Below, in pieces: positions 3,283 to 58,154 of a DNA stretch of 64,000 nt. The notes under the pieces are model-generated. The model ran no database searches, had not been told where the DNA came from, and worked only from the letters and a program-made list of their open reading frames with translations. The stretch is from a virus (taxonomy: Duplodnaviria; Caudoviricetes), in IMG/VR virus record IMGVR_UViG_3300027996_003878. One strand, given 5' to 3'. Every line of letters begins with the position of its first letter. Positions within the stretch are counted from its first letter, which is position 1. A program made the position numbers and the translations under genes.

Positions 3283-3870
3283 TCAATCAAGCAATCTATT
3301 TCTTGCTTCTTCTATTGCTTCGTATCGTATTTCTCCTTCAAGATCATCTAATCTTTGTAGATGATCCTTTAGCCATTTATCTTGATTGTCGAAAATATAA
3401 TCAGTCAAAGCGGATTCAAGCTTTTCTTTATCTTTTTTGTTTTCAATATTGAGACCGTCGAAGCTTACAAGGTGGAAGTTCTCCAGCTCCCAGCCGCCAG
3501 AGATTCCAACTTCAGGATCTTTGGGCTCATGATACCAATCAGCATCAAAAGAAAATGAGTGACTTGTTGAATCACTGTATTCCTCCCAATTCTCCGGCTC
3601 CTCTCCAAACGTATCCATAACCTCAAGCCAGAATGCATCGCCATCAATCGCTCCTCCGGCGGGTGTAAAATGCTTATCGCTTATGATACGGGGGCCTTTA
3701 ATGCGAAACCCAAGCTCCACATCATCTACCTCAATCGTTTCATCGGAATATCGATCTCGCTCCGCTTGTGAAAAAGGCCCTTTAAGCTCCAAGGTCATAC
3801 CAAGCGCATCTTGAGCTTTCTTCTCAAACATTGAAGCGAATTTACTGATTTTATCTATTAAGTTAGTCAT
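3283..3870 (-). CDS. acidic hypothetical protein with shared N-terminal leader
   Basis: ORF; likely start MTNLIDKISKFASMFEKKAQ. Confidence 0.7.
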   Translation of the reverse strand: MTNLIDKISKFASMFEKKAQDALGMTLELKGPFSQAERDRYSDETIEVDDVELGFRIKGPRIISDKHFTPAGGAIDGDAFWLEVMDTFGEEPENWEEYSDSTSHSFSFDADWYHEPKDPEVGISGGWELENFHLVSFDGLNIENKKDKEKLESALTDYIFDNQDKWLKDHLQRLDDLEGEIRYEAIEEARNRLLD

Positions 3871-3964
3871 TTTTTTCCCTAAAGACACACACGTACACGC
3901 AGTATGTTCGTTAAACTCATCCTCTAAAGATATTAAATTATGACCACTTAAACAAATATTCTTG

Positions 3965-4423
3965 TTATTGAATTTTGATTTTCATAAAGGATTTTGTTAG
4001 TTTAATTAGTTTAACCAAGCTTCTTTCCAAATCATCAAACAAAACAAAACCCTCCTCTTTATCACTGTGCCAGCAACGTAAACCATTGATATCTTTAATT
4101 ACATCGTCACAATGATTTAATAAATTCAAAAAGATAGCTTCAGCTGCTTCTTGAGAGCCTTCAATTTTGGGTAGAATCTTTTCAAAGCAAGCAAGCTCAT
4201 GTGCGTGTGTGAATTCGTGCTTTACTCGCTCAATCTTATCTTCAAGAAAAGACAAGCGGTTATGTGTGTCTTTGAATGATGCCCTAAGAGTAGATTCATT
4301 TTTGTAATCTAAATGACTTACATCATCCTTGTAAATATTCAAAAAATGATTTAGTTCAGAATGATGTTCTTTGAAGTTAATAACATTATTCATAATTAAC
4401 CTGCCATTACCTTGTCTTTCCAA
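3965..4423 (-). CDS. hypothetical protein
   Basis: ORF; true start probably the internal MNNVINF. Confidence 0.65.
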   Translation of the reverse strand: MERQGNGRLIMNNVINFKEHHSELNHFLNIYKDDVSHLDYKNESTLRASFKDTHNRLSFLEDKIERVKHEFTHAHELACFEKILPKIEGSQEAAEAIFLNLLNHCDDVIKDINGLRCWHSDKEEGFVLFDDLERSLVKLIKLTKSFMKIKIQ

Positions 4424-4950
4424 AAATCAAACCCTTCACGCAAAAGCTTTAAAAACTCTGCGTCACTTAGGTTTGTTTCTGTTCCTCCATCACTCCCAAA
4501 ATGATTATGCATGAGAGTTTCAGGATCCATTGGAACATCGCCTTCAACAGGAGAAGCATTAATTGAAACAACCTCCCAATGGCTCTTATCGGGCTCAAGT
4601 GAATTATCTCCACCTTCAGCCAAAACATCCGAACGATAAAGAATAACCTCAACTCGCTTTGCCGGAGCCTTTCTCGCGCCCTTTGCCAATACCTGCTTTC
4701 TAGGAACCTCACCTTCCCTTCTAGACGTGTATGCGCCTGTAAGCTCTGCTCCGGACTCTAAGGAAACAACGCCGCTAAAAAAGCCCTCATGGTTTATCGT
4801 TACAGAAATAACCCCATCTCTGTAACCTGGCTCTTGATTGCTCCAAAAGTTCATAACCATTTTTGGAACTTCTTCAATATTTCCCGCAAAATAAGAAAAA
4901 GGGCTTTCTTTGGTCTGACGAAGTACAAAGGGGTTGTTTACAATTTTCAT
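4396..4950 (-). CDS. hypothetical phage protein
   Basis: 184-aa ORF in operon. Confidence 0.75.
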   Translation of the reverse strand: MKIVNNPFVLRQTKESPFSYFAGNIEEVPKMVMNFWSNQEPGYRDGVISVTINHEGFFSGVVSLESGAELTGAYTSRREGEVPRKQVLAKGARKAPAKRVEVILYRSDVLAEGGDNSLEPDKSHWEVVSINASPVEGDVPMDPETLMHNHFGSDGGTETNLSDAEFLKLLREGFDFWKDKVMAG

Positions 4951-5087
4951 TATTCTTTAATTCCTTTCCAATGGCTTTATTGCCGCCTCTAACTACAAGA
5001 CGCTCTCAGTTGCTCTTTTCTGACAGTAAGCTTCAACTTTTTTTTAAGCGGCCAAGGAAGTTCATGATTTATTTGATTAAAATAATG

Positions 5088-5348
5088 TTAAACGTTCAGC
5101 GTAACAATCCCAAACCCTGAGTGCTCGTCACCCCAAGTAAGAAAAAAATCATCATCATGCAGGGTCGCAAAGTCTAAGCCTTCCGACTCATTGATTTCAT
5201 AAATTTCGCTATAACTCTCACCTTCATATGCGCCCTCTACCATCTTACGAAATTGGTCTTTGGCGCTTTGCTCATCAGTAAAGCTGGAAACAACCTTCAT
5301 GCCCCAGGAAGACTCAACAGATACAATTAAATAAAGTTTATTTGACAT
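5088..5348 (-). CDS. hypothetical protein
   Basis: 86-aa acidic ORF. Confidence 0.7.
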   Translation of the reverse strand: MSNKLYLIVSVESSWGMKVVSSFTDEQSAKDQFRKMVEGAYEGESYSEIYEINESEGLDFATLHDDDFFLTWGDEHSGFGIVTLNV

Positions 5349-5396
5349 AATATTTCTTTCTTTGTTTGATTCGTTTTGTTTTAATTGTTTAAAAAA

Positions 5397-5594
5397 TTAT
5401 GACGCACTTACCAAGCTCAAACACTTCAACGGTGTTCTGGCGTTCATGCCATCTGGAAACCTTACCCAAACTTGCTGTGAGAAAATGTAATCGGCCAATC
5501 GTCTTGCCGGAATAACCCGAACCACTTCTCCTACAGCACCATCATCAGAATGCCTTACCCTATCACCAACTTTAAAAGGATTTTTCATTTTCAT
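5397..5594 (-). CDS. small SH3/KOW-like beta-barrel protein
   Basis: FKVGDRVRH...GEVVRV...VWVRF; paralog of 13150-13350. Confidence 0.65.
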   Translation of the reverse strand: MKMKNPFKVGDRVRHSDDGAVGEVVRVIPARRLADYIFSQQVWVRFPDGMNARTPLKCLSLVSAS

Positions 5595-5884
5595 GTTTCG
5601 AACCTCTTGTTTAAAACTTCTTCAATAGAATTAGCTAATTGTTGCGCAGAATTAAGGCTTTGAATAAAATCGGTTGTAACCTTTGGATTGACCGTACCAA
5701 GGGAAGCCCAATTTACACCTACATTCCACTCCTCACGCCAACAGGAATGAACCACCCTAACTTCAATATGCCTCCCAAACTTCCAGATAGCCGAACTAGA
5801 GCTTGTGTGGGACTCAAGCTTAGCAAACTCAGGGTTCTCGCCATTGACCCGATCAATCAATTCCTTCATAGTCATTGCACTCAT
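5591..5884 (-). CDS. hypothetical protein, paralog family A
   Basis: Similar to 5967-6257 and 10963-11286; AGGAGG SD. Confidence 0.75.
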   Translation of the reverse strand: MSAMTMKELIDRVNGENPEFAKLESHTSSSSAIWKFGRHIEVRVVHSCWREEWNVGVNWASLGTVNPKVTTDFIQSLNSAQQLANSIEEVLNKRFET

Positions 5885-5966
5885 AATCAACCCCCTCCTT
5901 TCATATTACTAACATAACCACCCCAATGGCTTTGTCAAGGGATTCTTTTTTTTATAATTTAATAAT

Positions 5967-6257
5967 CTAATTACTTGCATTTAGAGCATTGTCAATAAAA
6001 TCCACCAGCTCTTTTGCTTGTCTTAAATCATTGGAAAATTCTTCGCATCGTAATGAATCAACCATCCACAATGAAGGCCAGCTAATACCAACCCTCCATG
6101 TTTTTCGCCAAGTAGAATATTGCGCCTTAACTTCTACTTGATTAAAATACCATAAAGCTGCATCTTCATATTTCTTTAAATTTGCATCTGCCAAATTTGC
6201 ATCTGCCCATATAAGATTAAAGCCATTAACCTTATCAATTAAATCCTTAATAGTCAT
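5967..6257 (-). CDS. hypothetical protein, paralog family A
   Basis: MTIKDLIDKVNG vs MTMKELIDRVNG; W..V.V.W.SL core. Confidence 0.75.
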   Translation of the reverse strand: MTIKDLIDKVNGFNLIWADANLADANLKKYEDAALWYFNQVEVKAQYSTWRKTWRVGISWPSLWMVDSLRCEEFSNDLRQAKELVDFIDNALNASN

Positions 6258-10962: not shown

Positions 10963-11286
10963 TTATTCAGCTAATTCTTCTTTAATTTTTTTCGCAAATG
11001 TTGTTGCGAGTTTTAAATTATTTGAAAAGATGGATGCTTGTTCTGGATTGATTGGCTCTAGATCTAACCAATCAACAGAAACATTCCACTTTTGTTCGTT
11101 ATAATCATATGCCGCTGTTACTTCAATTTGGGGAGTAAAGTACCAAGTCATTGCAGTACGATGTCTACCAAGCCCCATATCTGTATAAGGAACTTTCCAT
11201 GAATCCACTGTATCTTTTAAAGTAAGAAGAGTATGCATGGATAACGAAACTTTAAACGATTTTGCTACTTTTTGAAGCTTGCTCAT
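10963..11286 (-). CDS. paralog family A protein with shared N-terminal leader
   Basis: C-terminal WYF..IEV..Y...W.V.V.W core like 5591 and 5967; N-terminus KVAKSFKVSL. Confidence 0.75.
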   Translation of the reverse strand: MSKLQKVAKSFKVSLSMHTLLTLKDTVDSWKVPYTDMGLGRHRTAMTWYFTPQIEVTAAYDYNEQKWNVSVDWLDLEPINPEQASIFSNNLKLATTFAKKIKEELAE

Positions 11287-32149: not shown

Positions 32150-33205
32150 ATGAAACGCCAAAACATACTTATAAATTCAATCAGTAAGCTTGCAAGTAAA
32201 TTTTTGAAGCTTGCCAAGGCTCCCAGTGGAATTGTTACGTATCATGGTACAAATGCGCGGTTTTTGAATAATATGCTTCAAGAAGGAATTCTTTCAAAAG
32301 TACCTCCAGGATCTTATCACAAAGACAAGGCAGTTTATCTAACGAATGACATAAGCCAGGCTGCAAGATACACTCTAAAAGAAGATTTACCCATGATTTT
32401 AGAGCTGTATTTATCAACACCGAAGCGGTTAAAAAAAATAAAACATGATTTGCTTGATCGGTATGATTGGGGCGACTTTGAATCAGAATGGCAGGAAGAG
32501 CTAATATATTTATCTAAAGATCTAAGTGAAGTTCTAGGAGGCTGGGAAAGAGAGATCGAACAAGCCCTTGTAACTGACAATGAGATTCATGAAATTATAG
32601 GTATGAATGTTTACAAACTTATATTATCAATAGCAAGAGAAAATAATTTAAACATTCAAGATGTAAAAAATAAACTTAAAAAACTTCCAAAAAGTGATCC
32701 AAATAATTTCTTTTTTTACATATCACATGATGGTACGCTCCAACCTACCAAATATTATTATGATTGGATGCACCAAATGAAGTATCCAACCACATTGCCT
32801 CCTTCTGTTATAAAATATGTTTGGCTGCCTGAACGTAATTTAAAAAATGAGCATAAAAATAATGCGCTAAATGCCAATCAAATCTATAGCAACTATTTGC
32901 CGGGCGATTTGGACCACATAAGAAGCTCCATAGAAAATGCATTTAAGGGTATCTATGGCACGGAGACGAGCGAGGAGGACAAAGAGCGCTTGTTAGTCGA
33001 TTTAAAAGATATAAATGATGATTTTAAAGATTCAACTAAAGAGCTGTTAGAGGAAGTTAAAGGCACGGCTCCTGAGGAATTGAGCGATATTGATTATTAT
33101 GAATTTATTCCTCAGGAAGGCGAGCAGGCTCTAAGCGACAATTACCTTAGATTTGACATTGATTATGTCAAATCTAAGGGAATAAGCTCAATGTTAAAAA
33201 GCTAG
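32150..33205 (+). CDS. ART-fold protein with shared leader
   Basis: YHGT..FL..M..EGI...VYLT.D...A.RY. Confidence 0.65.
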   Translation: MKRQNILINSISKLASKFLKLAKAPSGIVTYHGTNARFLNNMLQEGILSKVPPGSYHKDKAVYLTNDISQAARYTLKEDLPMILELYLSTPKRLKKIKHDLLDRYDWGDFESEWQEELIYLSKDLSEVLGGWEREIEQALVTDNEIHEIIGMNVYKLILSIARENNLNIQDVKNKLKKLPKSDPNNFFFYISHDGTLQPTKYYYDWMHQMKYPTTLPPSVIKYVWLPERNLKNEHKNNALNANQIYSNYLPGDLDHIRSSIENAFKGIYGTETSEEDKERLLVDLKDINDDFKDSTKELLEEVKGTAPEELSDIDYYEFIPQEGEQALSDNYLRFDIDYVKSKGISSMLKS

Positions 33206-33320: not shown

Positions 33321-33971
33321 ATGAAAAAATCTTCAGTGAAAAAAATTGAAAGCAATAAAGTCCACAAGCTGGCGGTAAAATTTGAAAGAAAGATATTTAA
33401 AATATCCACTCAAGAGCAGATTAGAATTTATAGAGCACAGCCTGCTTGGACAACCGATCTAGAGTCGGATTCATATGTAACTAAATCAAGAAAATTTGCA
33501 CTTGATCACGCTATAACATCCTCATTATATAATGACACTGATTTTTGCATAATTATGGCGAAAGTTAACAAAGACCAAATTGAAGAGGCAAATAATCCTG
33601 GTGAATATATTTACAAGGGCGGCAAGATTAAGGCAATTCCAATTCAAGCCATTAACTCTGAGGGCGATGTGATGCCTTATTCAAAATGGTTGGAAAATGA
33701 TGAGGTTGTGCTTTATCATAGAACAAGCCCGGAAATTGCTGAAGAAATAAATAGAAGCGGAGAATTTAAATCAAAAATTAAAACAAACCTTGGAAAAGAG
33801 CTTTATTTCAGCAATCGTCGTGATGGGCAAATATCTGGATACGGAGAGGGGCTTGTAGTTGTAAAAATAAACAAAAAATATTTAAATTTAGATGATCAGT
33901 TTTCAAGTGGCGAAAAGCATTACATGATAACCTTGAATGATTTTAATAATTATGGAAAAGTAGTCAGTTAA
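33321..33971 (+). CDS. protein with two ART-like modules and shared leader
   Basis: IYRA...SYVT..., then LYHRTS..I..SG.F...ELYFS. Confidence 0.55.
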   Translation: MKKSSVKKIESNKVHKLAVKFERKIFKISTQEQIRIYRAQPAWTTDLESDSYVTKSRKFALDHAITSSLYNDTDFCIIMAKVNKDQIEEANNPGEYIYKGGKIKAIPIQAINSEGDVMPYSKWLENDEVVLYHRTSPEIAEEINRSGEFKSKIKTNLGKELYFSNRRDGQISGYGEGLVVVKINKKYLNLDDQFSSGEKHYMITLNDFNNYGKVVS

Positions 33972-34342: not shown

Positions 34343-34738
34343 ATGATTATCAATTGCAATAATATTCTAAATCTTTCAAATGTATTTTTTAAATTAGCAT
34401 CATCAAATGATGATGATGATGCTTTTGTATTAAATTTAAGTGAATATGACTTGAAGGCACTTGACCCTGATAAGCTAGAAGAGGGAAAGAAAGAATATAG
34501 AATAACGGTTACACCAGAAGAGTTAAGTCAATATTTGGAAAAATCGATGAGCGACAACAATTTGTCGCCTGTCGGCGTTCGAATTATGGAACAAGTCCCA
34601 GATCTAAAAGAATTTAATAAGCTTTTAGAAAAAGCAATAAGCAATAAAGAAGAAGAAAAGGAAAAAGCAAAAGACCTACTTTCGGAAGAGCTTAGCGATC
34701 AAGAGTTCCAAGAAAGCCTAAGAAAATTTTTATTTTAA
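34343..34738 (+). CDS. acidic hypothetical protein with shared leader
   Basis: NLSNVFFKLAS. Confidence 0.7.
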   Translation: MIINCNNILNLSNVFFKLASSNDDDDAFVLNLSEYDLKALDPDKLEEGKKEYRITVTPEELSQYLEKSMSDNNLSPVGVRIMEQVPDLKEFNKLLEKAISNKEEEKEKAKDLLSEELSDQEFQESLRKFLF

Positions 34739-35253: not shown

Positions 35254-35631
35254 GTGATGAATAAAAGATTAGATCAAGCAGCACATAAAATCAATTTAAA
35301 GCTCACAAAAAGAGCCCAGGACCTTTTTTCTGAATTCAAAAAAACCGTTGATAGGCGCGGTAGTGACGAATATGACTTTAGTAATGGATTTAGCGCCTTA
35401 GTGACACGTCCATTCAAAGGGACATCCCTTGAAAAAGAGCTAAAGGGCATCTACGAGCTAGAAATATTTTCAAATGGCGACAAATGCAATGACAATGACT
35501 GCGAAGTAATAAAAGAAAATGTAATAACACCATTTTTAGAAAAATCAACTGATCCAACTGTTTATAAATTGCAATATTTAGACTGGAATGAAGTATCAAA
35601 GCTTCTTCTTTCAATACAAAGTCAAGATTAA
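35254..35631 (+). CDS. hypothetical protein with leader-like N-terminus
   Basis: AAHKINLKLTKRAQD. Confidence 0.65.
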   Translation: MMNKRLDQAAHKINLKLTKRAQDLFSEFKKTVDRRGSDEYDFSNGFSALVTRPFKGTSLEKELKGIYELEIFSNGDKCNDNDCEVIKENVITPFLEKSTDPTVYKLQYLDWNEVSKLLLSIQSQD

Positions 35632-38002: not shown

Positions 38003-38098
38003 AAGAAGAACAATCGATAGTCAGTACATTTATTTAAAATAAAGGCTTATAAGGATATTTTTATATCTATTTTGAAACACTTAAGTCTGATTTTTATT

Positions 38099-40996
38099 AT
38101 GAATGATTACAAAAAAGATAGCGCTGCGATTCAGTTAAAGAAAAAAATCTCTGCATCAAGAAAGCATGCGATAGAGCTTCATGCAGTAAGTCCCTATAAC
38201 TTTACAAAAGTTGCAGACATCATTGATAGCCTGTCAAAGGCATGGAATTGGATAACAGATCCAGAATTTAGATTGGATTTAAAAAAACTAAATGTAAAAA
38301 CTGTAAAAACTGAGAAGTTAATTAAAGAATTAAAAGATAAAACCAATACTTTACTCAGAGCAATTGATGCTGGCAATTTAGTCGGCTATGACAGCGCCCT
38401 TAAAGAGGTTAAACGTCTATCTACTGAACTAAACCGAGCGACATCTGAGGCCCAATCTATACAAAGAAATATGGGCGAAACGGTTATTGATGAAGTAGAG
38501 CAAAGGTACACAGAAACAAAACCAGTTGATAAGGCTGAACCAAAAAAACCAAAACCAAAGACAAAGCCAAAGACAACGCCAAAGACAAAGGCAAGAGCGC
38601 CCTCAGCGCCGCCTAAGGAGCGCGGGGAGGAGCGCGGGGAGGAGAACGGCGAGAGCATCACCCAAGAGCCAAAGAAGCCCTCAGAGGCGCCAGAGCCACC
38701 TGCAAAGACGGATAAGGAGTCTCCCCAAGAGGAGCAAGATAGCGCAAGTTTAATTCAAGCTATAGATCGTCAAATTGAATCGCTAAAAGAGCCAGAGATA
38801 GTACCTGAAACTAAGCAAAAAATAACAAGAAATTTAAGAAAGAAAATATTAGGACTTTATGCGTTAACTCAAAGAGGTGAGCGTGGCGAAGCTACGGCTG
38901 CTGAAAACGTTCTAAAGACTATCTTGCAAAAGATTAAAACAGAAGATCAGGACATACCACTTCTCGGAAGTTCGATTCCATCTTATGAAGACTTTTTAAA
39001 CCGAGCGCCTTTTTACTTATCGAAAATGCCCGCTCCAGAAAGTGATATCGAAGGAAAGCCTGAGTCCAAAGAAGAGGCCAAAAAGGAGCCGATCAAAAAA
39101 AGAAGAATCGTTCAGCTGCCCATGCCGCCGGAAGAAGCGACAAAAGAGCTTGAGCTGGTGGAAGAAAAAACAATTAAAGAGAACTCTAATGATGGTAATG
39201 TCGAGCTTATAGAGGATGCCTTGAGCAATATTAGTGTTGCCCAGCCGGAAGGTATGTTTGATAATTTTGCAAGCGGACTTAGCGGTAAAGGTTTAAAAGG
39301 AATTAGAGTTATTGGAAATAAACTTATAGGAGACGCAGAAGATCCAAATACGAAAGATCCTATGAGTAGAGGTAAAGATTTAGATGATTACGAAGATTTT
39401 TCAAACAAATCAAGCGGCATTGGATTTGACTACATACTATACTCACCGAAAGGCAACGTAAATAAATTCAATGTTGTGCCATTTTCAAAAAAAGCTATAA
39501 AAATATTGGGAGAGCTGAAAGGACTGGAGAAACTTCAACCATCGGCGGCTTTGGTCATTGAAAAAGAGTTACAGAAAAAAAGCCCAACAAAAGTATCAGA
39601 AAAACCGTCTCAAGAAAAAGAAACCGCTTTTGATGAAGGCAATTACGAAGAACCCGAAGAAGTTGTATTAAAAGACAAAAGTAAAAAAGAAAAAGCTCTT
39701 ACAGAAAAGATAAAGCAAGAATTTGATGACAAAGGCTTAGATGTTCCAGATTGGTTGCTAGATTCTATGAGAATGAGTTCAAAAGTCACAAAGCCATACT
39801 TCCCAACGACTTATAACTTAAATTATTTGATTTTTAAAGCTGAAAAAGATTTTTTTACAGATAAAATACAGAGTGAATTTGATGTCAACAATGCAGACAT
39901 GCCGTCACTGCTTGAACCACTTAACCCAGGCACATCCGTTAACACCAAGGCTAAAGAAAGCGAGTCAGAGGACACTCAAGACGAAGATTCGGCGGAAGAG
40001 TTAAGTGAGGGAAAAGTAAGAAAACAAATGAGAGGCTTGTATTTTAGCAAAGGTAAGACAAAGCAAGATTTTTCAACTACAAAAGAGGATATCAGAAAAC
40101 TTCGTGATGTCGGCATCACTGATGCTGACATTTATAATTTTAAAAAAATACCAGCAAAATCATCGCCTGCATCGGTTCCATATGCAAAAAGATCGGGTGA
40201 AATATATAAATGGGTAGCAAAAACAAAAGCAACAATGTCGGATGCGGAACTTGAGCTAATATTAGATAATGTAAAATCAGAAATATTAAAAGATTCAGAA
40301 AAATATCCAGAATTTAAAGGCCTTAATAGAGAAGCTTTAGATAAGCAGGGCTGGCTGTCTCATTATATAATTAAATCTATAAGAGAAGATCTTCCGATTC
40401 ATTGGAAAGGTAAAGATCAAAACATTGTAAGCGCACAATGGATTTATGGTCTAGCTAATATCTTTTTAAAATTGGCAATGCCCAGATTAAAAGTTGCAGG
40501 CGACAAAAATAAGGCGTCCGAAGCCGATTATATGTATCACGTTACCTACTACAAGGATCTTGGATCCATAGCAGACTCGGGATTGAACCCAGGGGGCGGC
40601 TCCGCTATGGGAAAGGGAGGGCACTCCGGACATAGCCGGGGGCGCACCTTTATGACCGAAAAGGACGGCCTTTCCTTCTGGTTCGGCAGAATGGAAGAAC
40701 ACGCGGAGGCCGACAGCGACGATCCGCTGGGCGAAGGATACGTTCCGGTCTCACTACGGTTCCCGAAGCCCAAGGGCCTGGAGGAGGACGAGGCCGGAAC
40801 CTCCGACGCAATGGCAGAATCTTACTTTCTCGAAGGTTCGGTTCCTCCTGGCGAGGTCGAACTCTGGGATGGTAATTCCTGGATCGCGCTAACCTCCTGG
40901 GAGAGCGTGAACCCGGAGGAATCCTTCGACGTGGACGAGTACGACGGGGAGAAATGGCACATCTTCAAGGGTGATAACCCTCTTTATCCCGGTTAG
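38099..40996 (+). CDS. large multidomain protein: K/P-rich linker, DUF2786-like hairpin, C-terminal ART-like domain
   Basis: KKILGLYAL.QRGERGEATAAENVL; YMYHVTY...I..SGL.P...FMT. Confidence 0.75.
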   Translation: MNDYKKDSAAIQLKKKISASRKHAIELHAVSPYNFTKVADIIDSLSKAWNWITDPEFRLDLKKLNVKTVKTEKLIKELKDKTNTLLRAIDAGNLVGYDSALKEVKRLSTELNRATSEAQSIQRNMGETVIDEVEQRYTETKPVDKAEPKKPKPKTKPKTTPKTKARAPSAPPKERGEERGEENGESITQEPKKPSEAPEPPAKTDKESPQEEQDSASLIQAIDRQIESLKEPEIVPETKQKITRNLRKKILGLYALTQRGERGEATAAENVLKTILQKIKTEDQDIPLLGSSIPSYEDFLNRAPFYLSKMPAPESDIEGKPESKEEAKKEPIKKRRIVQLPMPPEEATKELELVEEKTIKENSNDGNVELIEDALSNISVAQPEGMFDNFASGLSGKGLKGIRVIGNKLIGDAEDPNTKDPMSRGKDLDDYEDFSNKSSGIGFDYILYSPKGNVNKFNVVPFSKKAIKILGELKGLEKLQPSAALVIEKELQKKSPTKVSEKPSQEKETAFDEGNYEEPEEVVLKDKSKKEKALTEKIKQEFDDKGLDVPDWLLDSMRMSSKVTKPYFPTTYNLNYLIFKAEKDFFTDKIQSEFDVNNADMPSLLEPLNPGTSVNTKAKESESEDTQDEDSAEELSEGKVRKQMRGLYFSKGKTKQDFSTTKEDIRKLRDVGITDADIYNFKKIPAKSSPASVPYAKRSGEIYKWVAKTKATMSDAELELILDNVKSEILKDSEKYPEFKGLNREALDKQGWLSHYIIKSIREDLPIHWKGKDQNIVSAQWIYGLANIFLKLAMPRLKVAGDKNKASEADYMYHVTYYKDLGSIADSGLNPGGGSAMGKGGHSGHSRGRTFMTEKDGLSFWFGRMEEHAEADSDDPLGEGYVPVSLRFPKPKGLEEDEAGTSDAMAESYFLEGSVPPGEVELWDGNSWIALTSWESVNPEESFDVDEYDGEKWHIFKGDNPLYPG

Positions 40997-44875: not shown

Positions 44876-45532
44876 TCACTCAGGTAAATTAAAGACACTT
44901 ACAACCGACCTAAGTGCTATCTTTCTGAAAGTCCGTGTTAAAGCAAATCTTTTAAACTCAAACGGAGGAGGTTCTTTTTGCTCTGAAAAGAACTTCCGCC
45001 TAGCCTCATCCTCTTTTTCAGCCTGTATTTTTACTAACTCTTGAATTAATTTAATTGCATTCTGCTTGCTTAATATTAAATCATTTTTTTCAGACCAACT
45101 AATATCTGACATCATTAAGACTGGCGCCAATCGAGAGTTCCAAAGGTCATAATCCTTTATATTAATTTTTTTAAGGTCATTTTTTAAGAAATTAATGTGA
45201 TAATCACCTGTTCTAATGTTATATTTCAACTCAACAAACAAAGGGATATCAACAAACTGCAAAAGACTGGTATTATCTTTACTAAAATAATCAATGCCTT
45301 TGCTTATTTCCTCACCAGCATCACCTTCCAATATTTTTTTTGGATCAATTTGAAACTCAACGTCCAAATCATATTCAGCCTCGACCGCACCAGGCTCCAT
45401 TTCACTTGAACGCTCACTTGGACGCTCATTATCTACCTCAGCAAGAGGCAGCGCCCTCTCAACTCTAGTTTCATCGCTAGCAACAAGCACATCAAATAAG
45501 CTTGAGAATTTTAAAATGTCTACAATTTTCAT
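44876..45532 (-). CDS. hypothetical protein with leader-like N-terminus
   Basis: ILKFSSLFDVLVAS. Confidence 0.7.
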   Translation of the reverse strand: MKIVDILKFSSLFDVLVASDETRVERALPLAEVDNERPSERSSEMEPGAVEAEYDLDVEFQIDPKKILEGDAGEEISKGIDYFSKDNTSLLQFVDIPLFVELKYNIRTGDYHINFLKNDLKKINIKDYDLWNSRLAPVLMMSDISWSEKNDLILSKQNAIKLIQELVKIQAEKEDEARRKFFSEQKEPPPFEFKRFALTRTFRKIALRSVVSVFNLPE

Positions 45533-45593: not shown

Positions 45594-45944
45594 ATGAATA
45601 GTAAAATTATTAACAATATCAATAAACTAGCTAATATATTTCTTTTAAAGACTGCGGCAAAAAAAAAGAAAGAAGAATTAGATCCAAAGGCAAAGGTAAG
45701 AAACAGAGGTGTAGTTGTTTTTCCAGCCGAAAGTGATAAAGTATTAGATAATAAAGATCATTTTCCAATTAATAATTTAAGACAAGCTAGAAACGCTTTA
45801 TCCAGAGCAAATCAATACGATAAATCGCCCGATTGGTATAAGGGATCTTTAAAATCATTGGTAAAAGAAGTGGCGAATGCTGTAAAAAATAAATTTAAAA
45901 GCATTAACGTCACCAAAGCATCCGAAAAGCCAGGGAAAGGCTGA
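45594..45944 (+). CDS. basic phage protein with shared leader
   Basis: INKLANIFLLKTAA; FPI...ARNALSRA.Q motif. Confidence 0.75.
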   Translation: MNSKIINNINKLANIFLLKTAAKKKKEELDPKAKVRNRGVVVFPAESDKVLDNKDHFPINNLRQARNALSRANQYDKSPDWYKGSLKSLVKEVANAVKNKFKSINVTKASEKPGKG

Positions 45945-47262: not shown

Positions 47263-48498
47263 ATGGAAGATCGTTGGACAGATATCGTGCGCCCGTATTC
47301 TTTGGAAGATGTTAAAAGAATACGAGGCAGTATAAGAATAGACCAAACTTGGGCAAAATTAGCTTCAGAAAAACTTTGGCGTTTGATGAAGCAAAACGCC
47401 CCAGTTCGCGCACTTGGCGCAATGACTGGAAACCAAGCGATACAGCAAGTGCGCGCTGGCCTTAAGGCAATTTATGTAAGTGGCTGGCAGACGGCAGCGG
47501 ATGCAAATAGTGGTCGTCAGATGTACCCAGATCAAAGCTTATATCCTGTAAATGCTGTCCCATTGCTGATTGAAAGAATTAATAATGCACTTCAAAGATC
47601 AGACGAAATAGACGTCGCAGAAGAAAAATCAGACATTGATTGGCTTGTGCCACTTGTGGCGGATGCAGAGGCCGGATTCGGCGGTGTATTAAATGCATAC
47701 GAATTAATGAAATCAATGATTAAAGCGGGCGCTGCGGGCGTTCACTTTGAAGATCAATTAAGCAGCGAAAAAAAATGTGGTCATCTAAATTCCAAAACTT
47801 TAGTGCCTACGTCTAGCTTCATTAGAACCCTAACTGCTGCAAGATTAGCCGCAGATGTTTTAGAGGTTCCTACGGTTTTGATTGCAAGAACAGATGCAGA
47901 AAGCGCTGGATTTATAACTAGCGACGTAGACCCCCGCGATCATGATTTTATTGACAAATCAGAAAGAACTCCTGAAGGTTTTTTTAAGTTATGTGGAGAT
48001 CCTATGGAAAGATGCATACGAAGGGGACTTGCTTACGCACCCTACTCAGATCTAATTTGGATGGAAACATCCACTCCTAACCTAGGGCAGGCTAAAAAAT
48101 TTGCAGATGCAATTCATGAAAAATACCCAAATAAAAAATTAGCATACAATTGCAGTCCAAGCTTTCATTGGAAGAAATTCTTATCCTCCAACGAAATGAA
48201 AGACTTTCAAACGGAACTTGGAAAATTAAATTATACTTTTCAATTTATAACTTTAGCAGGTTTTCATGCCTTAAACTTTAGCATGTTTGAGTTAAGTCAG
48301 AATTATAAAAATAGCGAAATGTTGGGGTATTCTTCTTTGCAGGAAAAAGAATTTGAAGCCTATTCGCAGGGATACACCGCAATAAGGCACCAACATGAAG
48401 TTGGCGTTTCCTATTTTGATGAAGTTCGCAAGGTTATAAATGGTGGAGATGATAGCATGTCTGCTCTTACCGGCAGCACCGAAGACGACCAATTTTAA
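47263..48498 (+). CDS. aceA: isocitrate lyase
   Basis: [55 protein letters not shown]. Confidence 0.98.
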
Positions 48499-48513
48499 TA
48501 GGAAACAATTAAT

Positions 48514-49287
48514 ATGAAAGTTTTAAGAAAAGGCGCTAAAGGTCCAGGCGTAAAGGCTTGGCAAATTTTTTTACGAGGGCAAGGCTACCATATTATAGCT
48601 GATGCTGACTTTGGAAAAAAGACAGTGTCAGCCACTAAGGCTTTTCAAAAAAAGAAAAGACTTGTCGCTGACGGTGTTGTTGGCAATGCAACCTACGCCG
48701 TTGCAATGCTATTGGGGTTCGAGGTCATAAAAGATGATGAGTCTGACATTTACAGCGCCAACTGGCCTCCAAAGCCAGATTTTAAGCCAATAGTTGGAAC
48801 CGCTGCACGTCAAAGAATTTTTGGAAAATTCAATTTCAAGCGGATGAGAGTTAAAGGCAACCCAGAGGCGATTAGAATATTAGATAATTGGGTTGAAGAA
48901 AATATAGTTTATGTAAAAATCCCACAATTAATAGGCGTCAAAGGCACTTATAGAAGAAAAACATTCGCATTTCATAAGTTAGTCGCAGAGCCTGTTAAAG
49001 ATTTATTTCAGGCCTGGGATGATGAGGGATTGTCTGATCTTATTCTTTCGTGGGGAGGTTCTTTCGTACCTAGATTTATAAGAGGATCAAACACAAGCTT
49101 AAGCAATCACAGCTTTGGAAGTGCGTTTGATATAAATGTTCCATGGAATTATTTAGGAGCACGGCCGGCTTTAGTCGGTAAAAAGGGATCAGTAAGAAAG
49201 CTTGTGCCAATTGCCAATGAATTAGGATTCTATTGGGGCGGTCATTTCCGACGCAAAGATGGAATGCACTTTGAGTTCTGCGGATAA
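48514..49287 (+). CDS. peptidoglycan-binding domain + M15 family peptidase (endolysin-like)
   Basis: PGBD (ADADFG..T..A..AFQ...ADGVVG); SNHSFGSAFDIN, DGMHFE. Confidence 0.9.
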   Translation: MKVLRKGAKGPGVKAWQIFLRGQGYHIIADADFGKKTVSATKAFQKKKRLVADGVVGNATYAVAMLLGFEVIKDDESDIYSANWPPKPDFKPIVGTAARQRIFGKFNFKRMRVKGNPEAIRILDNWVEENIVYVKIPQLIGVKGTYRRKTFAFHKLVAEPVKDLFQAWDDEGLSDLILSWGGSFVPRFIRGSNTSLSNHSFGSAFDINVPWNYLGARPALVGKKGSVRKLVPIANELGFYWGGHFRRKDGMHFEFCG

Positions 49288-49324
49288 AAACTAAAAAATT
49301 CAATAAAAAAAAGCTACAAATTAA

Positions 49325-50920
49325 ATGAATAAAATATTATTTCCAGAATTAAAAAACGAAAACGAGAAAAAAATACTTTCTCCAGAAGCGCTTAACTTTC
49401 TAAAAGATTTATTTAATGAGTTTAATGGCAAAATAAAAAATTTATTAAAGCTAAGAGTTCGAGATGCTAAATTAATTTCAGATGGTCAGCTGCCAAATTT
49501 TCTAGAAGAGACAGAGGGTATTAGAAATTCCACTTGGCAAATCTCTTCGGTACCAAAAGACCTTCAAGATCGTAGAGTAGAAATTACAGGTCCGGTTGGA
49601 AGAAAAATCATAATTAACGCCCTTAACTCTGGCGCTAATGTTTTCATGGCTGATTTTGAAGATTCAAACTCACCGACCTGGAAAAACACTTTAGATGGAC
49701 AGATAAATCTCTTTGATGCTGTAAGAGAAGAAATAAGTTTATTTGATAAAGTAAAAAATAAAGAATATAAATTAAATAAAGATCACGCAACCTTGATGGT
49801 AAGACCTCGTGGCCTTCACTTACTTGAAAAAAATATTCTCATAGAAGACGAACCAATCCACGGCTCTTTAGTTGATTTTGGCTTGTACTTTTTTCACAAC
49901 GCACAAGAGCTTTTAGACAAAGGCTCCGGGCCTTACTTTTACTTACCAAAAATAGAGCACTTTAGAGAAGCTGCTCTATGGAATGAAGTATTTAATTTCT
50001 CACAAGATAAGTTAAATATTAAAAGAGGTACAATAAAAGCTACTGTTTTAATCGAAACTTTACCAGCTGCATTTCAGATGAATGAAATATTGTATCAGCT
50101 TAAAGATCATTCCGCCGGGCTGAACTGTGGAAGATGGGATTACATTTTTAGTTTTATAAAAACGCTAAAAGATCACGAGCAATTTACCCTTCCAAATCGA
50201 AGTGATTTGACAATGGATAAGCATTTTATGAGATCTTATACGCAATTGTTGATTCAAACATGTCACAAAAGAAAAGCACACGCTATGGGCGGCATGTCTG
50301 CATTTATACCAATTAAAAACGATGAAATGGCAAATAACGCTGCATTAGATGCCGTGAAAAAAGACAAAATGCGCGAAGTAAAAGACGGTCATGATGGAAC
50401 ATGGGTTGCGCACCCTGGATTAGTTGAAATGACAAGAAAAATCTTTGACGAGTACATGCCGACAAAGAATCAAATCAATAATAAAAGAGAAGACGTAAGC
50501 ATAACTGCAAATGATTTACTTCAAACCCCTCAAGGCGAGAGAACTGAAGATGATATTAGAAAAAATATAAACGTGTCATTGCAGTATATAAATTCCTGGC
50601 TATCAGGGACTGGCTGCGTTCCCATTAACAATTTAATGGAAGACGCAGCGACCGTTGAAATATCTAGAGCGTTAATATGGCAATGGATAAAATTTAAGGT
50701 AAAAACCGACAGCGGTATAATTGTAAGTAAAGAAAAAATTCAAAAATTACTGCTTGACGAAGTCGCCAAATTAAAAACAGATAAAAATATCAAAGAAAAC
50801 AACGAGACATTTAAAAAAGCAATTGAAATATTCTCAAATGTTTCAATGAATACAAGTAATTTTAATAATTTCCTAACAACCGATGCTTATGAAGAGCTAA
50901 TCAAAATATCCCAAACATGA
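49325..50920 (+). CDS. aceB: malate synthase A
   Basis: DRRVEITGP, ADFEDS, VRPRGLHL, GLNCGRWDYIFS, AMGGMSA, DGTWVAHP, MEDAATVEISR. Confidence 0.98.
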   Translation: MNKILFPELKNENEKKILSPEALNFLKDLFNEFNGKIKNLLKLRVRDAKLISDGQLPNFLEETEGIRNSTWQISSVPKDLQDRRVEITGPVGRKIIINALNSGANVFMADFEDSNSPTWKNTLDGQINLFDAVREEISLFDKVKNKEYKLNKDHATLMVRPRGLHLLEKNILIEDEPIHGSLVDFGLYFFHNAQELLDKGSGPYFYLPKIEHFREAALWNEVFNFSQDKLNIKRGTIKATVLIETLPAAFQMNEILYQLKDHSAGLNCGRWDYIFSFIKTLKDHEQFTLPNRSDLTMDKHFMRSYTQLLIQTCHKRKAHAMGGMSAFIPIKNDEMANNAALDAVKKDKMREVKDGHDGTWVAHPGLVEMTRKIFDEYMPTKNQINNKREDVSITANDLLQTPQGERTEDDIRKNINVSLQYINSWLSGTGCVPINNLMEDAATVEISRALIWQWIKFKVKTDSGIIVSKEKIQKLLLDEVAKLKTDKNIKENNETFKKAIEIFSNVSMNTSNFNNFLTTDAYEELIKISQT

Positions 50921-56238: not shown

Positions 56239-56922
56239 ATGTTAAGTTTTATAAAATTTATTCAAATTCCTGTAATTTCAACATCATTTCTAGTGCTGGC
56301 AAATGCTGGCAATTTAAAAAAACCAACATGTCCAGCCGATATGGTGGCTGTAAATAACAATACATGCATAGACAAATACGAATGGCCAAATAAAAAGGGA
56401 GAGCTGCCCTTAGTTGGGGCTAGCGGCTTGCCAGAGCCACGAGACATTAAGAATAAAGAGACTTGGGATGCAGACTCTTTTTGCAAAAGTGTTGGAAAAA
56501 GAGTTTGCTGGGCCGATGAGTGGGTTAAGGCTTGTAAAGGAAAAAACAACTCGCCCTATCCATGGGGAAGTCAAGTTCCAAAGTACATTCCAGGTGAGTT
56601 TGACTCGCATTTGGCTTGTAACTTTGGAAAGCAATATATTGGACCAGATGAGTATAAGATATACCTGAGGGATAAGAAGGAGATGGCTAGGCTTGATCTC
56701 CGAGAGCCTAGTGGCGAGCGCAATCAGTGCAAAAGCGAAGTAGGCGCCTTTGATATGGTAGGAAATGTCGAAGAGTGGGTTCGATGTCGCAGTAAAACTG
56801 GCTGGTGCTTAGCGGGAAGGTATTGGTCTGAATTGTACAGATGCGATCAGCTAATTGGCTCACACGCACCAAAATGGCACTATTATCAATCAGGATTTAG
56901 GTGCTGCAAAGATTTGAATTAA
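56239..56922 (+). CDS. FGE-sulfatase (SUMF1/EgtB/PvdO) domain secreted protein
   Basis: CPADMV, CIDKYE, EW.KAC, YPWG, DMVGNVEEW, GFRCC. Confidence 0.88.
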   Translation: MLSFIKFIQIPVISTSFLVLANAGNLKKPTCPADMVAVNNNTCIDKYEWPNKKGELPLVGASGLPEPRDIKNKETWDADSFCKSVGKRVCWADEWVKACKGKNNSPYPWGSQVPKYIPGEFDSHLACNFGKQYIGPDEYKIYLRDKKEMARLDLREPSGERNQCKSEVGAFDMVGNVEEWVRCRSKTGWCLAGRYWSELYRCDQLIGSHAPKWHYYQSGFRCCKDLN

Positions 56923-56959
56923 ATAAACGTAAAATAAATAGATAGATATAGAGTAAAAA

Positions 56960-57577
56960 ATGTTTAAAGAAGCCCTTATAATTACAATGATATCTGTACT
57001 TTCACGAGAAATGCCGGATATTAACACTAAAAAAAGAACACAGCGTCGCGAATCCGTAGTAACACTAAGCAAGTTAGCCTACAAGGTGGCAGAGCGTGAG
57101 GCCCTTATTAGCAGAAAAGTTGATTCTGCGTTGCTTTTGGCAACTATGTACCGCGAAAGCAGGCTTAATATCAAAACCCCTGATGGTGACTGTAAAGCTA
57201 CAGGCTGGGGAAGTTCGCTGAGAAAAAGCTGTCCCGCAAAAGGCGTTATGCAAATAATGTCAACTAATCGTAAAATATTTAATAAACTACCTCAATCGAA
57301 ATTAGACCCTAAAATACCAAATAAAATTTCGATTAAAATGCTTTATGAACCTGAGTTGAACATAAGGTTAGGCTATGTTGCTTTGCACTATTGGAAAGAC
57401 ACATGTGGCGGCCCTCCTGGAGTTTGGATGACTGCATACCGTCGCGGCAAATGCTCTAGAAAATTTAAAATTAATCGAATTGATAAAGAGGCAAAAATTC
57501 GATGCAAAATAGCAACTATTATTCTTAAAAAGACAAATTCTTTACCAAAGAACTGGAAATGTTCAAGTGAGAATTAA
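56960..57577 (+). CDS. lytic transglycosylase (SLT-like)
   Basis: MYRES, GVMQI, LYEPELNIRLG. Confidence 0.8.
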   Translation: MFKEALIITMISVLSREMPDINTKKRTQRRESVVTLSKLAYKVAEREALISRKVDSALLLATMYRESRLNIKTPDGDCKATGWGSSLRKSCPAKGVMQIMSTNRKIFNKLPQSKLDPKIPNKISIKMLYEPELNIRLGYVALHYWKDTCGGPPGVWMTAYRRGKCSRKFKINRIDKEAKIRCKIATIILKKTNSLPKNWKCSSEN

Positions 57578-57593
57578 AAAATAGAGTAACCAT

Positions 57594-57624
57594 AAAAAAG
57601 CCACTTTAAAGTGGCTTTTTTTTT
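57594..57624. terminator. bidirectional intrinsic terminator
   Basis: AAAAAAGCCAC-TTTAAA-GTGGCTTTTTTTTT. Confidence 0.85.
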
Positions 57625-57656
57625 ATATGGTTATAATATTAAAATATAAAAGTGAT

Positions 57657-58154
57657 ATGAAAAAAATTCACAAAATAGCTCAATCATTTAAAGTCTCATT
57701 AGGCAGCCATGAATGCCTTTCAGACTTATTAGCATGCATGCGCGCCGTGGCTGACCTACACCAAACTCACCACTGGCAGACTAGAGGTAGTAGCTATTAT
57801 GGCGATCACTTGTTATTTGAAAGAATATACAATGAAAGCCAAAGCTTTGTTGATCAACTTGCAGAAAAAGCAATTGGCTTAGGCAATGCTGATTTGGTAG
57901 ATTTGTGCAAACAAAGCGAACTTAGACATAAAAAAATATTAGAGATGTGTGGAGAAACTTCAAATGTTTCTCCGCAAGAGATGGTCGAGCGATCTCTCAA
58001 GGCAGAAAAAAAATTAATTGAAATGACAAAGAACTCAATCAGCTCCCTTGAGAGCTGCAATCAATTGACACATGGATTAAGCAACCTACTAGAAGGAATT
58101 GCTGACGCACATGAAGGTTTTGTATATTTGTTAAAACAACGTGAAGAGGGTTAG
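57657..58154 (+). CDS. Dps/ferritin-like protein with shared leader
   Basis: HQTHHWQTRG..YYGDHLLFE.IY...VD.LAEK; final H..VYLL; N-terminus KIAQSFKVSL. Confidence 0.8.
   Translation: MKKIHKIAQSFKVSLGSHECLSDLLACMRAVADLHQTHHWQTRGSSYYGDHLLFERIYNESQSFVDQLAEKAIGLGNADLVDLCKQSELRHKKILEMCGETSNVSPQEMVERSLKAEKKLIEMTKNSISSLESCNQLTHGLSNLLEGIADAHEGFVYLLKQREEG

Follow-up and report, generated by a model that had tools for sequence, protein, structure and literature searches.

A shared N-terminal Lys-x-Ala leader across unrelated proteins in an uncultured marine jumbo phage, a candidate cleavable capsid-targeting signal

A common short helical tag with two Lys-x-Ala units was found at the N-terminus of nine otherwise unrelated proteins encoded by an uncultured marine jumbo phage. 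The stretch of DNA analysed (the window) is 64,000 nucleotides long. The tag consensus is h-x-K-h-A-x-x-F-x-K-x-A, a tandem of h-x-K-x-A units seven residues apart; the variant of the cargo leaders is I-x-K-h-A-x-x-F-x-K-x-A, about 12 residues long and mostly an amphipathic predicted helix, which lies 2-13 residues from the start Met. A sequence-only reading of the window had proposed a shared leader on about ten unrelated proteins, and all nine N-terminal strings and one internal copy are indeed present; three starts were corrected. The leader is a portable protein-level module, N-terminal and independent of the folded body. On balance, it is probably a cleavable capsid-targeting propeptide, an analogue of the T4 capsid-targeting sequence (CTS) with a different motif and protease family, for which we infer cleavage, packaging and injection. 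Related phages have similar putative cut sites around their head-maturation protease, and the tag is thus most likely a label to load into the capsid and cut.

Leader copies in the window

For the first gene (3283-3870, reverse strand), ATG 3870 is a more probable start than GTG 3888. Its product (195 aa) falls in no known family, and the leader (3814..3870) reads MTNLIDKISKFASMFEKKA↓Q, with the tandem units ISKFA and FEKKA (leave-one-out rank 8; 27.4 bits; arrows mark cuts, putative at all K-x-A-type sites). The gene at 10963-11286 (reverse strand, 107 aa) has the leader MSKLQKVAKSFKVSLS (11239..11286), with a canonical LQKVA and a degenerate second unit FKVSL. The next three leaders are on the forward strand. 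The first, MKRQNILINSISKLASKFLKLAKA↓PSG (32150..32221), has the tandem ISKLA and FLKLA and belongs to a 351-aa protein (gene 32150-33205) with weak PARP/ART-PolyVal likeness. The second, ..NKVHKLAVKFERKIFK (33321..33401), is found on a 216-aa protein of phrog_6170 (gene 33321-33971) and combines a canonical VHKLA with a non-canonical FERKI. The third, MIINCNNILNLSNVFFKLA↓SS (34343..34399; gene 34343-34738, 131 aa), lacks Lys in the first unit and has a canonical second unit FFKLA. The leader MNKRLDQAAHKINLKLTKRA↓Q (35257..35316, forward strand; gene 35257-35631, 124 aa), formerly placed at 35254, is a weak member with a terminal LTKRA, a helix part that matches poorly and a hydrophobic moment of 0.34. 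In the acidic 218-aa protein of gene 44876-45532 (reverse strand), the leader MKIVDILKFSSLFDVLVA↓S (45479..45532) shows the helix pattern, no K-x-A and a low hydrophobic moment; it is also more hydrophobic than most (mean 0.53). The tandem INKLA and LLKTA of MNSKIINNINKLANIFLLKTA↓A (45594..45656, forward strand; gene 45594-45944, 116 aa) contains a one-residue insertion. The ninth leader, MKKIHKIAQSFKVSLG↓S (57657..57704, forward strand), precedes a Dps/ferritin-like protein (gene 57657-58154), which most likely starts at ATG 57657 and not at 57627.

The internal copy, IYGLANIFLKLA↓MPRLKVA (40442..40477, forward strand), lies directly before the last ~170 residues (..YMYHVT..) of a 965/974-aa protein, whose ORF (38072-40996) opens at TTG 38072 and has its first ATG at 38099; it is a candidate internal processing site of this protein. 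A possible further member, absent from the earlier list, is VVTLSKLAYKVA↓E (57065..57100, forward strand), residues 36-47 of the product of gene 56960-57577, just before an SLT lytic-transglycosylase domain (residues 50-176; 30.4 bits, cut-off 21.3); it is weak, with shorter spacing and a hydrophobic stretch upstream. Gene 10963-11286 also has a C-terminal leader-like copy, NLKLATTFAKKI (10984..11019, reverse strand; residues 90-101 of 107; 9.1 bits).

The h-x-K-x-A unit ends six of the ten copies (nine leaders and the internal copy); the other four, without a canonical terminal K-x-A, are the 33321, 44876, 10963 and Dps leaders. The hydrophobic moment exceeds the 90th percentile of window 16-mers in 7/10 leaders, and most have a mean hydrophobicity of about 0, with Lys or a polar residue every 3-4 positions.

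Enrichment, portability and tagged bodies

The strict pattern K[LIVF]A..F was run on the 124 ORFs of the window and gave eight matches, of which six lie within the first 30 residues (20% of all residues). Leave-one-out scoring used a 13-column PSSM over 17,260 positions, where the eight training instances rank on top by construction; seven of the nine held-out leaders came at ranks 8-11 (10 for the 44876 leader and 11 for the 34343 leader), the 33321 leader at rank 18 and the 35257 leader at rank 79, so that its earlier label 'weaker' was right. When 10963 was held out, its N-terminal leader was outscored by the C-terminal copy at residue 90. When all six frames of the window were scanned (65,295 stop-free positions), the best non-training match was the internal copy, which is outside the training set (17.2 bits); the next matches (at most 13.4 bits) fell in non-coding frames or signal peptides. 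N-terminal enrichment over background, on which the sequence-only reading had made its proposal depend, was found: 15 of the window's 34 h-x-K-x-A units begin within the first 30 residues vs 6.9 expected (p = 1.5e-3), an enrichment of just about twofold for this minimal 5-mer. The window is AT-rich (32-46% GC).

The bodies of the nine tagged proteins show no detectable mutual similarity. 10963 does have two untagged paralogs, the products of 5591-5890 and 5967-6257 (27-29% identical over the body); both miss the first 15-20 residues and thus the leader, as had been noticed earlier, and the leader is an add-on relative to them. The leaders of 10963 and Dps, described before as near-identical (KVAKSFKVSL and KIAQSFKVSL), share a 22-residue BLASTP match of 54.5% identity, and the 10963 leader scores 25.8 bits against a model built solely from Dps leaders of other phages. 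The DNA of the leaders differs at synonymous sites (for example GCA/GCT, TCG/TCA and GTT/GTC between these two). Since the codons differ under identical residues, selection acts on the protein level, and a DNA repeat as the source of the shared leader was ruled out. A shared promoter motif was looked for upstream of the tagged genes and was not found.

The product of 57657-58154 matches Pfam Ferritin (34.3 bits, cut-off 24.5; 209 homologs), and AlphaFold2 predicts the helices of its ferritin-like four-helix bundle, characteristic of Dps, at pLDDT ~95. The leader was modelled as a separate low-confidence helix (residues 2-13, pLDDT ~56) outside the bundle. Dps orthologs of related phages (46-75% identity) keep a ..K-h-A-x-x-F-x-x-K-L-A-Q leader, and their alignment shows this conserved island, followed by a variable-length linker (gaps up to 8 columns) ahead of the conserved bundle. 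Together with the unrelated bodies, this bears out the suggestion of a portable tag. The Dps N-terminal extension varies among huge-phage groups: the K-x-A type is found here, and 'MKRRLVETLE' and 'WHDPT..HGPPYLP' types elsewhere. The label 'ART-like' is based solely on Pfam scores under the curated cut-off: the scores among the candidates (32150, 31782 and the C-terminus of 38072) were 22.4 bits for PARP (cut-off 26.7) and 22.1 and 24.1 bits for ART-PolyVal (cut-off 31.2). The C-terminus of the 38072 protein had no Pfam match. The ART fold is marked by an H-x-T / S-T-S / E or H-Y-E catalytic pattern; in the alignment of the candidates with phage G look-alikes, a His is the sole invariant column. 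The AlphaFold2 model of an ART-like body has a pLDDT of 49.7, and the Atlas offers no more than a lead for the ART likeness. An M50 peptidase (28373-29080) and several enzymes lie in one gene cluster.

Protease junctions in related phages and known packaging signals

The head-maturation proteases of the phage G clade belong to phrog_18299 (E = 2.6e-19) and have no Pfam match. Eleven of them have L-V-K-T-A-A-K-V-V-K-I-A↓P-K-E before the catalytic domain and A-K-I-L-E-K-V-A↓S after it, with invariant K and A columns. The proposed cut after x-x-A would fit the unit that ends six leader copies, as h-x-K-x-A is invariant at these domain edges. Among 47 distinct proteases and protease-scaffold fusions of relatives, the 12-mer that precedes P-[KR]-x-x-[DE]-F-x-Y is F-x-K-h-[AV]-x-x-h-K-[KR]-h-A, in a register identical to that of the cargo leader. 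In the relative G004, the genes follow one another as TerL, portal, Tyr-phosphatase, protease-scaffold and MCP; its protease junction is FSKFAQTLKRIA↓P, its capsid N-terminus is ..TQIAKYA↓S, and the cargo-like N-termini MLLFKFASIFQIQA↓Q and MSLFFKAAIFQRLA↓N adjoin the capsid gene. At least eight ORFs of this head module have an N-terminal K-x-A. The capsid site h-x-[KR]-Y-A, a single K-x-A unit near the N-terminus, is kept in four MCP clusters. Other contigs with a leader-bearing Dps also have more tagged ORFs, namely MSQVQKVASRLESKLA↓Q and ..LSKRFIRKLA↓E in L134 and ..EKLSARLKVQA↓K in L136.

The culturable phage G has a shorter K-R-L-x-K-x-A tag on ~20 proteins, and 20 of the 22 matches to [KRS]RL.K.[AS] lie within the first 15 residues. 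Its H-G-T-S ART-like proteins bear at least four of those 20 tags, and three more of these ART-like proteins, gp53, 70899 and 163172, have variant leaders. Only six proteins are common to the window and phage G by BLASTP, so phage G is a distant model. With a PSSM from 25 polyprotein-type protease junctions, the window leaders did not score above shuffles (best leader 6.6 bits vs a mean shuffle maximum of 9.7), so the two are alike in pattern and not in residues. The window PSSM gave 23 matches of at least 10 bits on 150 protease representatives vs 13 in the phage G proteome, about twofold. We infer the tie between the tag and putative protease cut sites from the proteases of relatives.

Judged by its sequence, the tag falls outside the T4 CTS family and is an analogue of it. 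Like the T4 CTS, it is a short N-terminal peptide on unrelated, fast-evolving proteins of one phage (nine here), whose front half would target and whose end would be a protease site. T4 packages the ADP-ribosyltransferase Alt via a propeptide (PMC9026906). The T4 parallel drawn earlier thus covers the cargo type as well, if with a weak ART assignment, as an ADP-ribosyltransferase-like enzyme may be among the passengers; the polyprotein-like internal and terminal processing would also recall T4, where Alt is cut at both ends. The parallel does not extend to sequence membership: the leaders end in K-x-A or variants and never in h-x-E, and the related proteases are not of the gp21 type. The tag is a tandem h-x-K-x-A (Ala P1, Lys P3) with a ~12-residue predicted helix whose spacing from Met varies, whereas the T4 CTS ends in L/I-x-E and occupies the first 10 residues. 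By sequence, the relatives' protease belongs to the gp19 type of phage G, with a zinc-ribbon insert, and is scaffold-fused in closer relatives. Overall, the earlier interpretation was partly supported.

Other signals were compared as well. Sec, Tat and lipoprotein signal peptides have an uninterrupted hydrophobic core of ~10 or more residues behind a basic n-region, with a lipobox Cys in lipoproteins; inspection and hydrophobicity showed no such core, and these signals were rejected. N-termini with a real signal sequence or lipobox do occur in the window (36893, 56239, 60759) and are unlike the leaders. The Prp/L27-type leader of Firmicutes phages is an N-terminal L-x-L-Q-x-F↓A motif on capsid and scaffold proteins, cut at ..L-Q-x-F↓A-S. 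It was also rejected, as Q-x-F-A is in no leader and Phe lies 4-5 residues ahead of the terminal Ala. The HK97 protease gp4 has a C-terminal targeting tail and encapsulins have cargo-loading peptides, both short peptides that dock a passenger inside an HK97-fold shell. Encapsulins classically carry ferritin-like proteins, a parallel to the tagged Dps; however, such signals mostly sit at the C-terminus, have other sequences and stay on the protein, and encapsulins are not known to have a protease. The herpesvirus assemblin cuts at maturation and release sites of the type (V/L)-x-A↓S. It shares the P1 Ala, the upstream hydrophobic residue and a scaffold-fused capsid-maturation protease that cuts its own domain junctions; but it comes from a eukaryotic virus and is not known to have a conserved Lys at P3 or a tagged cargo family. 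In phage P1, the first 30 residues of DarB suffice for reporter loading (PMC9024508). As the leader would, this N-terminal signal brings its protein, a large anti-defence enzyme, into a capsid of the HK97 fold; whereas the Dar proteins share no consensus and signal cleavage is unreported, one consensus is found here on at least nine proteins and ends in a putative cut site. In phiKZ and SPN3US, gp175 and gp245 remove the propeptides of head and ejection proteins and cleave after (S/A/G)-x-E or A-x-E (PMC10052503, PMC5694885). These, too, are jumbo phages; they pack many proteins, remove N-terminal propeptides (20 to 254 residues) at a short motif and cut the protease itself at a domain edge; but their propeptides have no common sequence and P1 is Glu, whereas here the leader itself is shared and P1 would be Ala.

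Alternative explanations and proposed role

A processing signal without packaging is improbable. The head protease or another phage protease would remove a propeptide that holds enzymes in check up to a given moment, and once matured these would do their work in the infected cell and not travel in the capsid; the putative protease site at the end of the motif and the cluster of the M50 peptidase with several enzymes would suit this. However, head-maturation proteases act within closed procapsids (PMC9026906), the conserved 7-residue helix upstream of the site exceeds what a cut site needs, and G004 head-module ORFs bear the same leader. About equally improbable is targeting elsewhere, with an amphipathic helix as the proteins' anchor at the cell membrane or at some other assembly or compartment made by the phage, and an incidental likeness to K-x-A. 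The high hydrophobic moments and near-zero mean hydrophobicity resemble membrane-surface helices, and the SLT-domain protein and patatin-cluster neighbours could work at the envelope; but Dps, nuclease-type and ART-type enzymes are non-envelope proteins, the tandem K-x-A register is common to protease junctions, and the hydrophobic core of the real signal peptides (56239, 60759) is missing.

An N-terminal degradation tag for an AAA+ protease, which would time the turnover of early effectors, is very unlikely. It would agree with a tag that is N-terminal, basic-hydrophobic and portable, and E. coli Dps is an N-terminal ClpXP substrate. Yet endoproteolysis, not a terminal degron, would agree with the pattern at protease-domain edges and with the internal copy, which marks a domain boundary in the 974-aa protein, and the distance from Met varies. 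ClpP and ClpX are encoded by phage G (PMC12484599), but ClpXP genes are absent from the window. Least probable, and already disfavoured, is that the leaders have no common function and arose by chance in a Lys- and Ile-rich proteome, or as an unselected ancestral exon-like N-terminal piece spread by recombination. The low GC content of the window, the weak members 35257 and 44876, which could be chance, and the non-significant cross-PSSM tests between leaders and protease junctions in both directions would allow this; against it stand the leave-one-out ranks, the synonymous differences beneath conserved residues, the leader kept on Dps orthologs and its recurrence on other proteins in relatives.

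As a capsid-targeting propeptide, the helix would dock the cargo late in infection onto the assembling scaffold and protease core of the procapsid, through the same kind of sequence as precedes the catalytic domain of the phage's head-maturation protease. After the shell has closed, the protease would cut after the K-x-A alanine and leave the mature enzyme free in the head, from which it could exit along with the DNA. Candidate cargo includes Dps, the ART-like proteins, perhaps the lytic transglycosylase, and several proteins without a known family; the C-terminal domain of the 974-aa protein would be released the same way.

A more tentative and less likely proposal is that the tag duplicates the N-terminal propeptide junction of the protease itself, so that passengers would share its scaffold docking and its cut, and tag and specificity would drift together. 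The different Dps N-terminal extensions of huge-phage groups are consistent with such a joint drift. Literature searches found no description of such tags for huge phages. If the tag is a copy of the protease junction, the full injected protein set of an uncultured huge phage would be readable from its sequence.

The leader on proteins of the window

A short, portable Lys-x-Ala leader stands at the N-terminus of nine otherwise unrelated proteins of the window. All nine strings claimed by the sequence-only reading, and an internal copy (40442-40477) in a 974-residue protein, were confirmed in the sequence; ATG 3870, ATG 57657, and ATG 38099 (the gene with the internal copy) are likely the true gene starts. 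The leader consensus, aligned on the Phe residue, is [ILV]-x-K-[LIFV]-[AS]-x-x-F-x-[K]-x-[A]. It is composed of two h-x-K-x-A units (h, hydrophobic residue), as in ISKLA + FLKLA, ISKFA + FEKKA, and INKLA + LLKTA, which are spaced by seven residues, that is, two helical turns. The second unit is degenerate in four copies, namely FKVSL (gene 10963 and the Dps gene, 57657-58154), FERKI (33321), and DVLVA (44876). The helical hydrophobic moment is above the 90th percentile of the window 16-mers in seven of the ten leaders. The distance from Met to the leader varies between 2 and 13 residues, and the leader is therefore not read from a free N-terminus.

The strict pattern K[LIVF]A..F has eight matches in the 124 window ORFs, six of them at residues 1-30. 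This N-terminal range also contains the starts of 15 of the window's 34 h-x-K-x-A units, with 6.9 expected (p = 1.5e-3). A leave-one-out test was performed with a 13-column matrix on 17,260 positions, where the eight training copies outrank the held-out leader by construction; seven held-out leaders ranked 8-11, and those of 33321 and 35254 ranked 18 and 79, respectively. When 10963 was held out, its C-terminal copy (residue 90) gave the top match. All six frames of the window were also scanned; here the internal copy, which was outside the training set, was the top non-training match (17.2 bits), and the next ones, of at most 13.4 bits, were in non-coding frames or signal peptides. Synonymous sites vary between the leaders at positions of identical residues, indicating conservation of the peptide rather than of a DNA or RNA element. 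No promoter or RBS module common to the tagged genes was seen in their upstream regions.

The two paralogs of 10963 (5591-5890 and 5967-6257) lack the leader, as had been proposed, and their first residues align to residue 15-21 of 10963. The gene 10963-11286 carries, besides its N-terminal leader, the extra leader-like copy NLKLATTFAKKI at the C-terminus (10984-11019, minus strand). The Alt protein of phage T4 is trimmed at both ends.

The window (64 kb) is phage-like, both in its densely packed small ORFs and in its gene content, which includes thymidylate synthase, DHFR, Dps, isocitrate lyase, malate synthase, and an endolysin-like gene. The window DNA was found again on public contigs (the longest of 296 kb) and in seawater metagenomes from about 20 studies; at least 13 of these studies, with near-identical matches, cannot be its source. 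Neighbours of the tagged cluster (28373-31019 and 41301-42173) include an M50 peptidase (77.9 bits), a PG_binding_1 protein, a glucosaminidase-like protein and an Smr protein (both below the cut-off), a TylF-type methyltransferase, a staphylococcal-nuclease homologue, a VWA lipoprotein, and a patatin-like phospholipase; the leader is absent from each of these genes. At 47263-50920, a PG-binding/peptidase (endolysin-like) gene is flanked by isocitrate lyase-like and malate synthase genes, the latter with 70% DNA identity to Salmonella aceB across 158 bases.

Dps and head proteins of the relatives

The body of the window Dps has 209 homologues, for the most part on large contigs. The ten nearest (46-75% identity, from other assemblies) retain the leader M-x-K-[LI]-x-K-h-A-x-x-F-x-x-K-L-A-Q; since these leaders read F-x-x-K-L-A-Q, the FKVSLG of the window Dps is taken as a worn form of it. 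In the orthologs, a linker in which the alignment has gaps of as many as 8 columns separates the leader from the invariant bundle. AlphaFold2 on the Dps alignment predicted a helix at residues 2-13 (pLDDT about 56), separate from the bundle (about 95). Two relatives with a leader-bearing Dps have further leader ORFs, namely MSQVQKVASRLESKLA/Q and ..LSKRFIRKLA/E in L134, and ..EKLSARLKVQA/K in L136 (the slash marks a putative cut). A PSSM from the Dps-ortholog leaders alone was too narrow, and found 10963, Dps, and 45594 only. Two other extension classes are found on more distant phage Dps (among P0013-P0120; L005-L084): 'VVWHDPTxYDPxxHGPPYLP', often behind a Cys-rich start, and 'MKRRLVETLEM..VEPN..DNM..EWG'. 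Both are conserved and occur on Dps/ferritin-like proteins of many huge phages; within 10 kb on each side, 'MKRRL.E.LE' and 'HGPPYLP' extensions were found on no ORF besides the Dps gene itself.

The K-x-A pattern also recurs in head proteins of the relatives. The related IMG/VR contig G004 (63.6 kb, 36.7% GC) encodes TerL, portal, a Tyr-phosphatase, a 1,228-residue protease-scaffold, and a capsid protein (phrog_2522, E = 1.9e-77), and at least eight ORFs of this head module have an N-terminal K-x-A. Two ORFs adjoining the capsid gene start with MLLFKFASIFQIQA/Q and MSLFFKAAIFQRLA/N; FSKFAQTLKRIA/P is the sequence of the protease junction, and residues 22-28 of the capsid protein read ..TQIAKYA/S; this capsid site, h-x-[KR]-Y-A, is conserved across four capsid-protein clusters. 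The phosphatase gene of G004 (Y_phosphatase2, 41.2 bits; 24721-25500, minus strand; L172-L173) is located between the portal and the protease-scaffold.

The proteases were compared in relatives of the window's phage. The phage's own portal was not among the 120 best matches of the phage G portal, and the protease profile search gave relatives such as P0261, P0266, and P0282 but not its own polyprotein. The gp19 of phage G and ten homologues belong to the head-maturation protease family phrog_18299 (E = 2.6e-19). Ahead of their catalytic domain is L-V-K-T-A-A-K-V-V-K-I-A/P-K-E-D-D-F, and behind it A-K-I-L-E-K-V-A/S; at both domain edges K and A are invariant in the alignment, and the outer flanks are variable. 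The protease profile search revealed 4,593 relatives, many of which are protease-scaffold fusions of 800-2,000 residues; Y-F-Q-G-G-G-G repeats are common to the fusions P0261, P0266, and P0282. The 12-mer ahead of P-[KR]-x-x-[DE]-F-x-Y in 47 distinct proteins reads F-x-K-h-[AV]-x-x-h-K-[KR]-h-A, for example FSKFAQTLKRIA, FIKLAADLKKLA, and LNKFAQTIKAIA, and it shares its register with the cargo leaders ISKFASMFEKKA and ISKLASKFLKLA.

The likeness between leader and protease junction is one of pattern. With a matrix from 25 polyprotein-type protease junctions, the window leaders did not score above shuffles (best 6.6 bits, mean shuffle maximum 9.7). In protease-scaffold proteins, the window matrix gave 18.3 bits (P0283) and 17.8 bits (P0341) at the C-terminal protease-domain edge, and overall its protease matches are only about twice those in the phage G proteome. 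It also gave up to 19.1 bits, borderline given multiple testing, on a conserved scaffold element, G-S-I-N-K-A-A-S-x-F-E-V-F-A-G-x-K-L-V-I (ninth position K in one form), at about residue 600-613 of several fusions (L150, 5198-8623; L153, 9908-13402; L160, 9929-13375). This element may be a structural strand instead of a site; it could also be a scaffold segment imitated by the cargo leader, or else a coincidence.

The gp19-type proteases have a conserved Cys-rich insert within the catalytic domain, M-G-C-R-C ... C-S-x-C ... C-x-H (columns ~200-225 of their alignment A3; gp19 residues 183-206), which looks like a zinc ribbon; by sequence it has no Pfam or PDB match. The protease profile also had no match among the PDB sequences, and the literature search found no report of measured cleavage after K-x-A in any phage.

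Phage G and the ART-like proteins

Only six proteins were common to the window and Bacillus phage G by BLASTP, and the relation between them is therefore distant. The pattern [KRS]RL.K.[AS] has 22 matches in phage G, 20 of which are in the first 15 residues (such as MKRLIKKA and MKRLFKKA); the tagged proteins (L109-L133 of G001) include those at 28218-28733, 255160-255879, and 482110-482637. At least four of the 20 tagged proteins continue with (Y/F)-H-[GT]-[TS]-S (H-G-T-S, ART-like), 4-7 residues behind the leader, and the same continuation follows variant leaders in gp53, 70899, and 163172 of phage G. The window proteins 32150 and 31782 likewise carry it. PARP matches were below the Pfam cut-off for both gp53 and 32150; the homologue search with 32150 returned only itself, and the AlphaFold2 model from the ART-like alignment (pLDDT 49.7) was too poor for a fold search. 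A ferritin-like protein was detected in the particle proteome published for phage G (PMC12484599), which gives no N-termini or cleavage data. No paper was found on the [KRS]-R-L-x-K-x-[AS] protein set.

Possible function of the leader

In phage T4, the ten N-terminal residues of IPIII direct any protein to the core of the prohead and are later removed by gp21; T4 also packages and trims the ADP-ribosyltransferase Alt (PMC9026906). In phage P1, residues 1-30 of DarB are enough for packaging (PMC9024508). By these precedents, the K-x-A leader is proposed to act in docking and cutting. The leader helix would dock the cargo to the protease-scaffold core, and the protease, once the shell is closed, would cut inside it behind the alanine of K-x-A, so that packaged proteins might be injected; the internal copy would free the last ~170 residues of the 974-residue protein. 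The analysis shows the motif with its position and portability, and the recurrence of its pattern in the relatives' head proteins; docking, cutting, packaging, and injection are inferred from these.

Other explanations were also considered. The leader might be a timing propeptide without packaging, a helix for localisation at the membrane surface or elsewhere, or an AAA+ degron, and the likeness between the leaders might have arisen by chance or have spread neutrally. Signals of the Sec, Tat, or lipoprotein kind were excluded because most leaders have no hydrophobic core, and a Prp/L27-type leader was ruled out by sequence.

The docking-and-cutting proposal describes a candidate system like the T4 capsid targeting sequence (CTS), present in marine relatives and, in a shorter form, in the culturable phage G; in comparison with T4, it would have a tandem K-x-A tag and a different protease family. 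Among the papers listed in the literature search as mentioning capsid targeting sequences, none refers to megaphages or huge phages as well. Since phage G is culturable and its particle proteome is published, the idea is testable by ordinary methods. If true, it would define a head-protease specificity with Lys at P3 and Ala at P1, of which no report was found for tailed phages, and such tags would be natural handles for filling large capsids with foreign proteins, a use already made of the T4 and P1 signals. The tag would also be a sequence rule predicting injected proteins in the jumbo phages related to phage G, where two-thirds of the genes are without function. The phage would then deliver a set of ready-made enzymes with its DNA, comprising Dps for DNA protection, ART-like modifiers, several proteins outside any known family, and perhaps an enzyme that cuts the wall.
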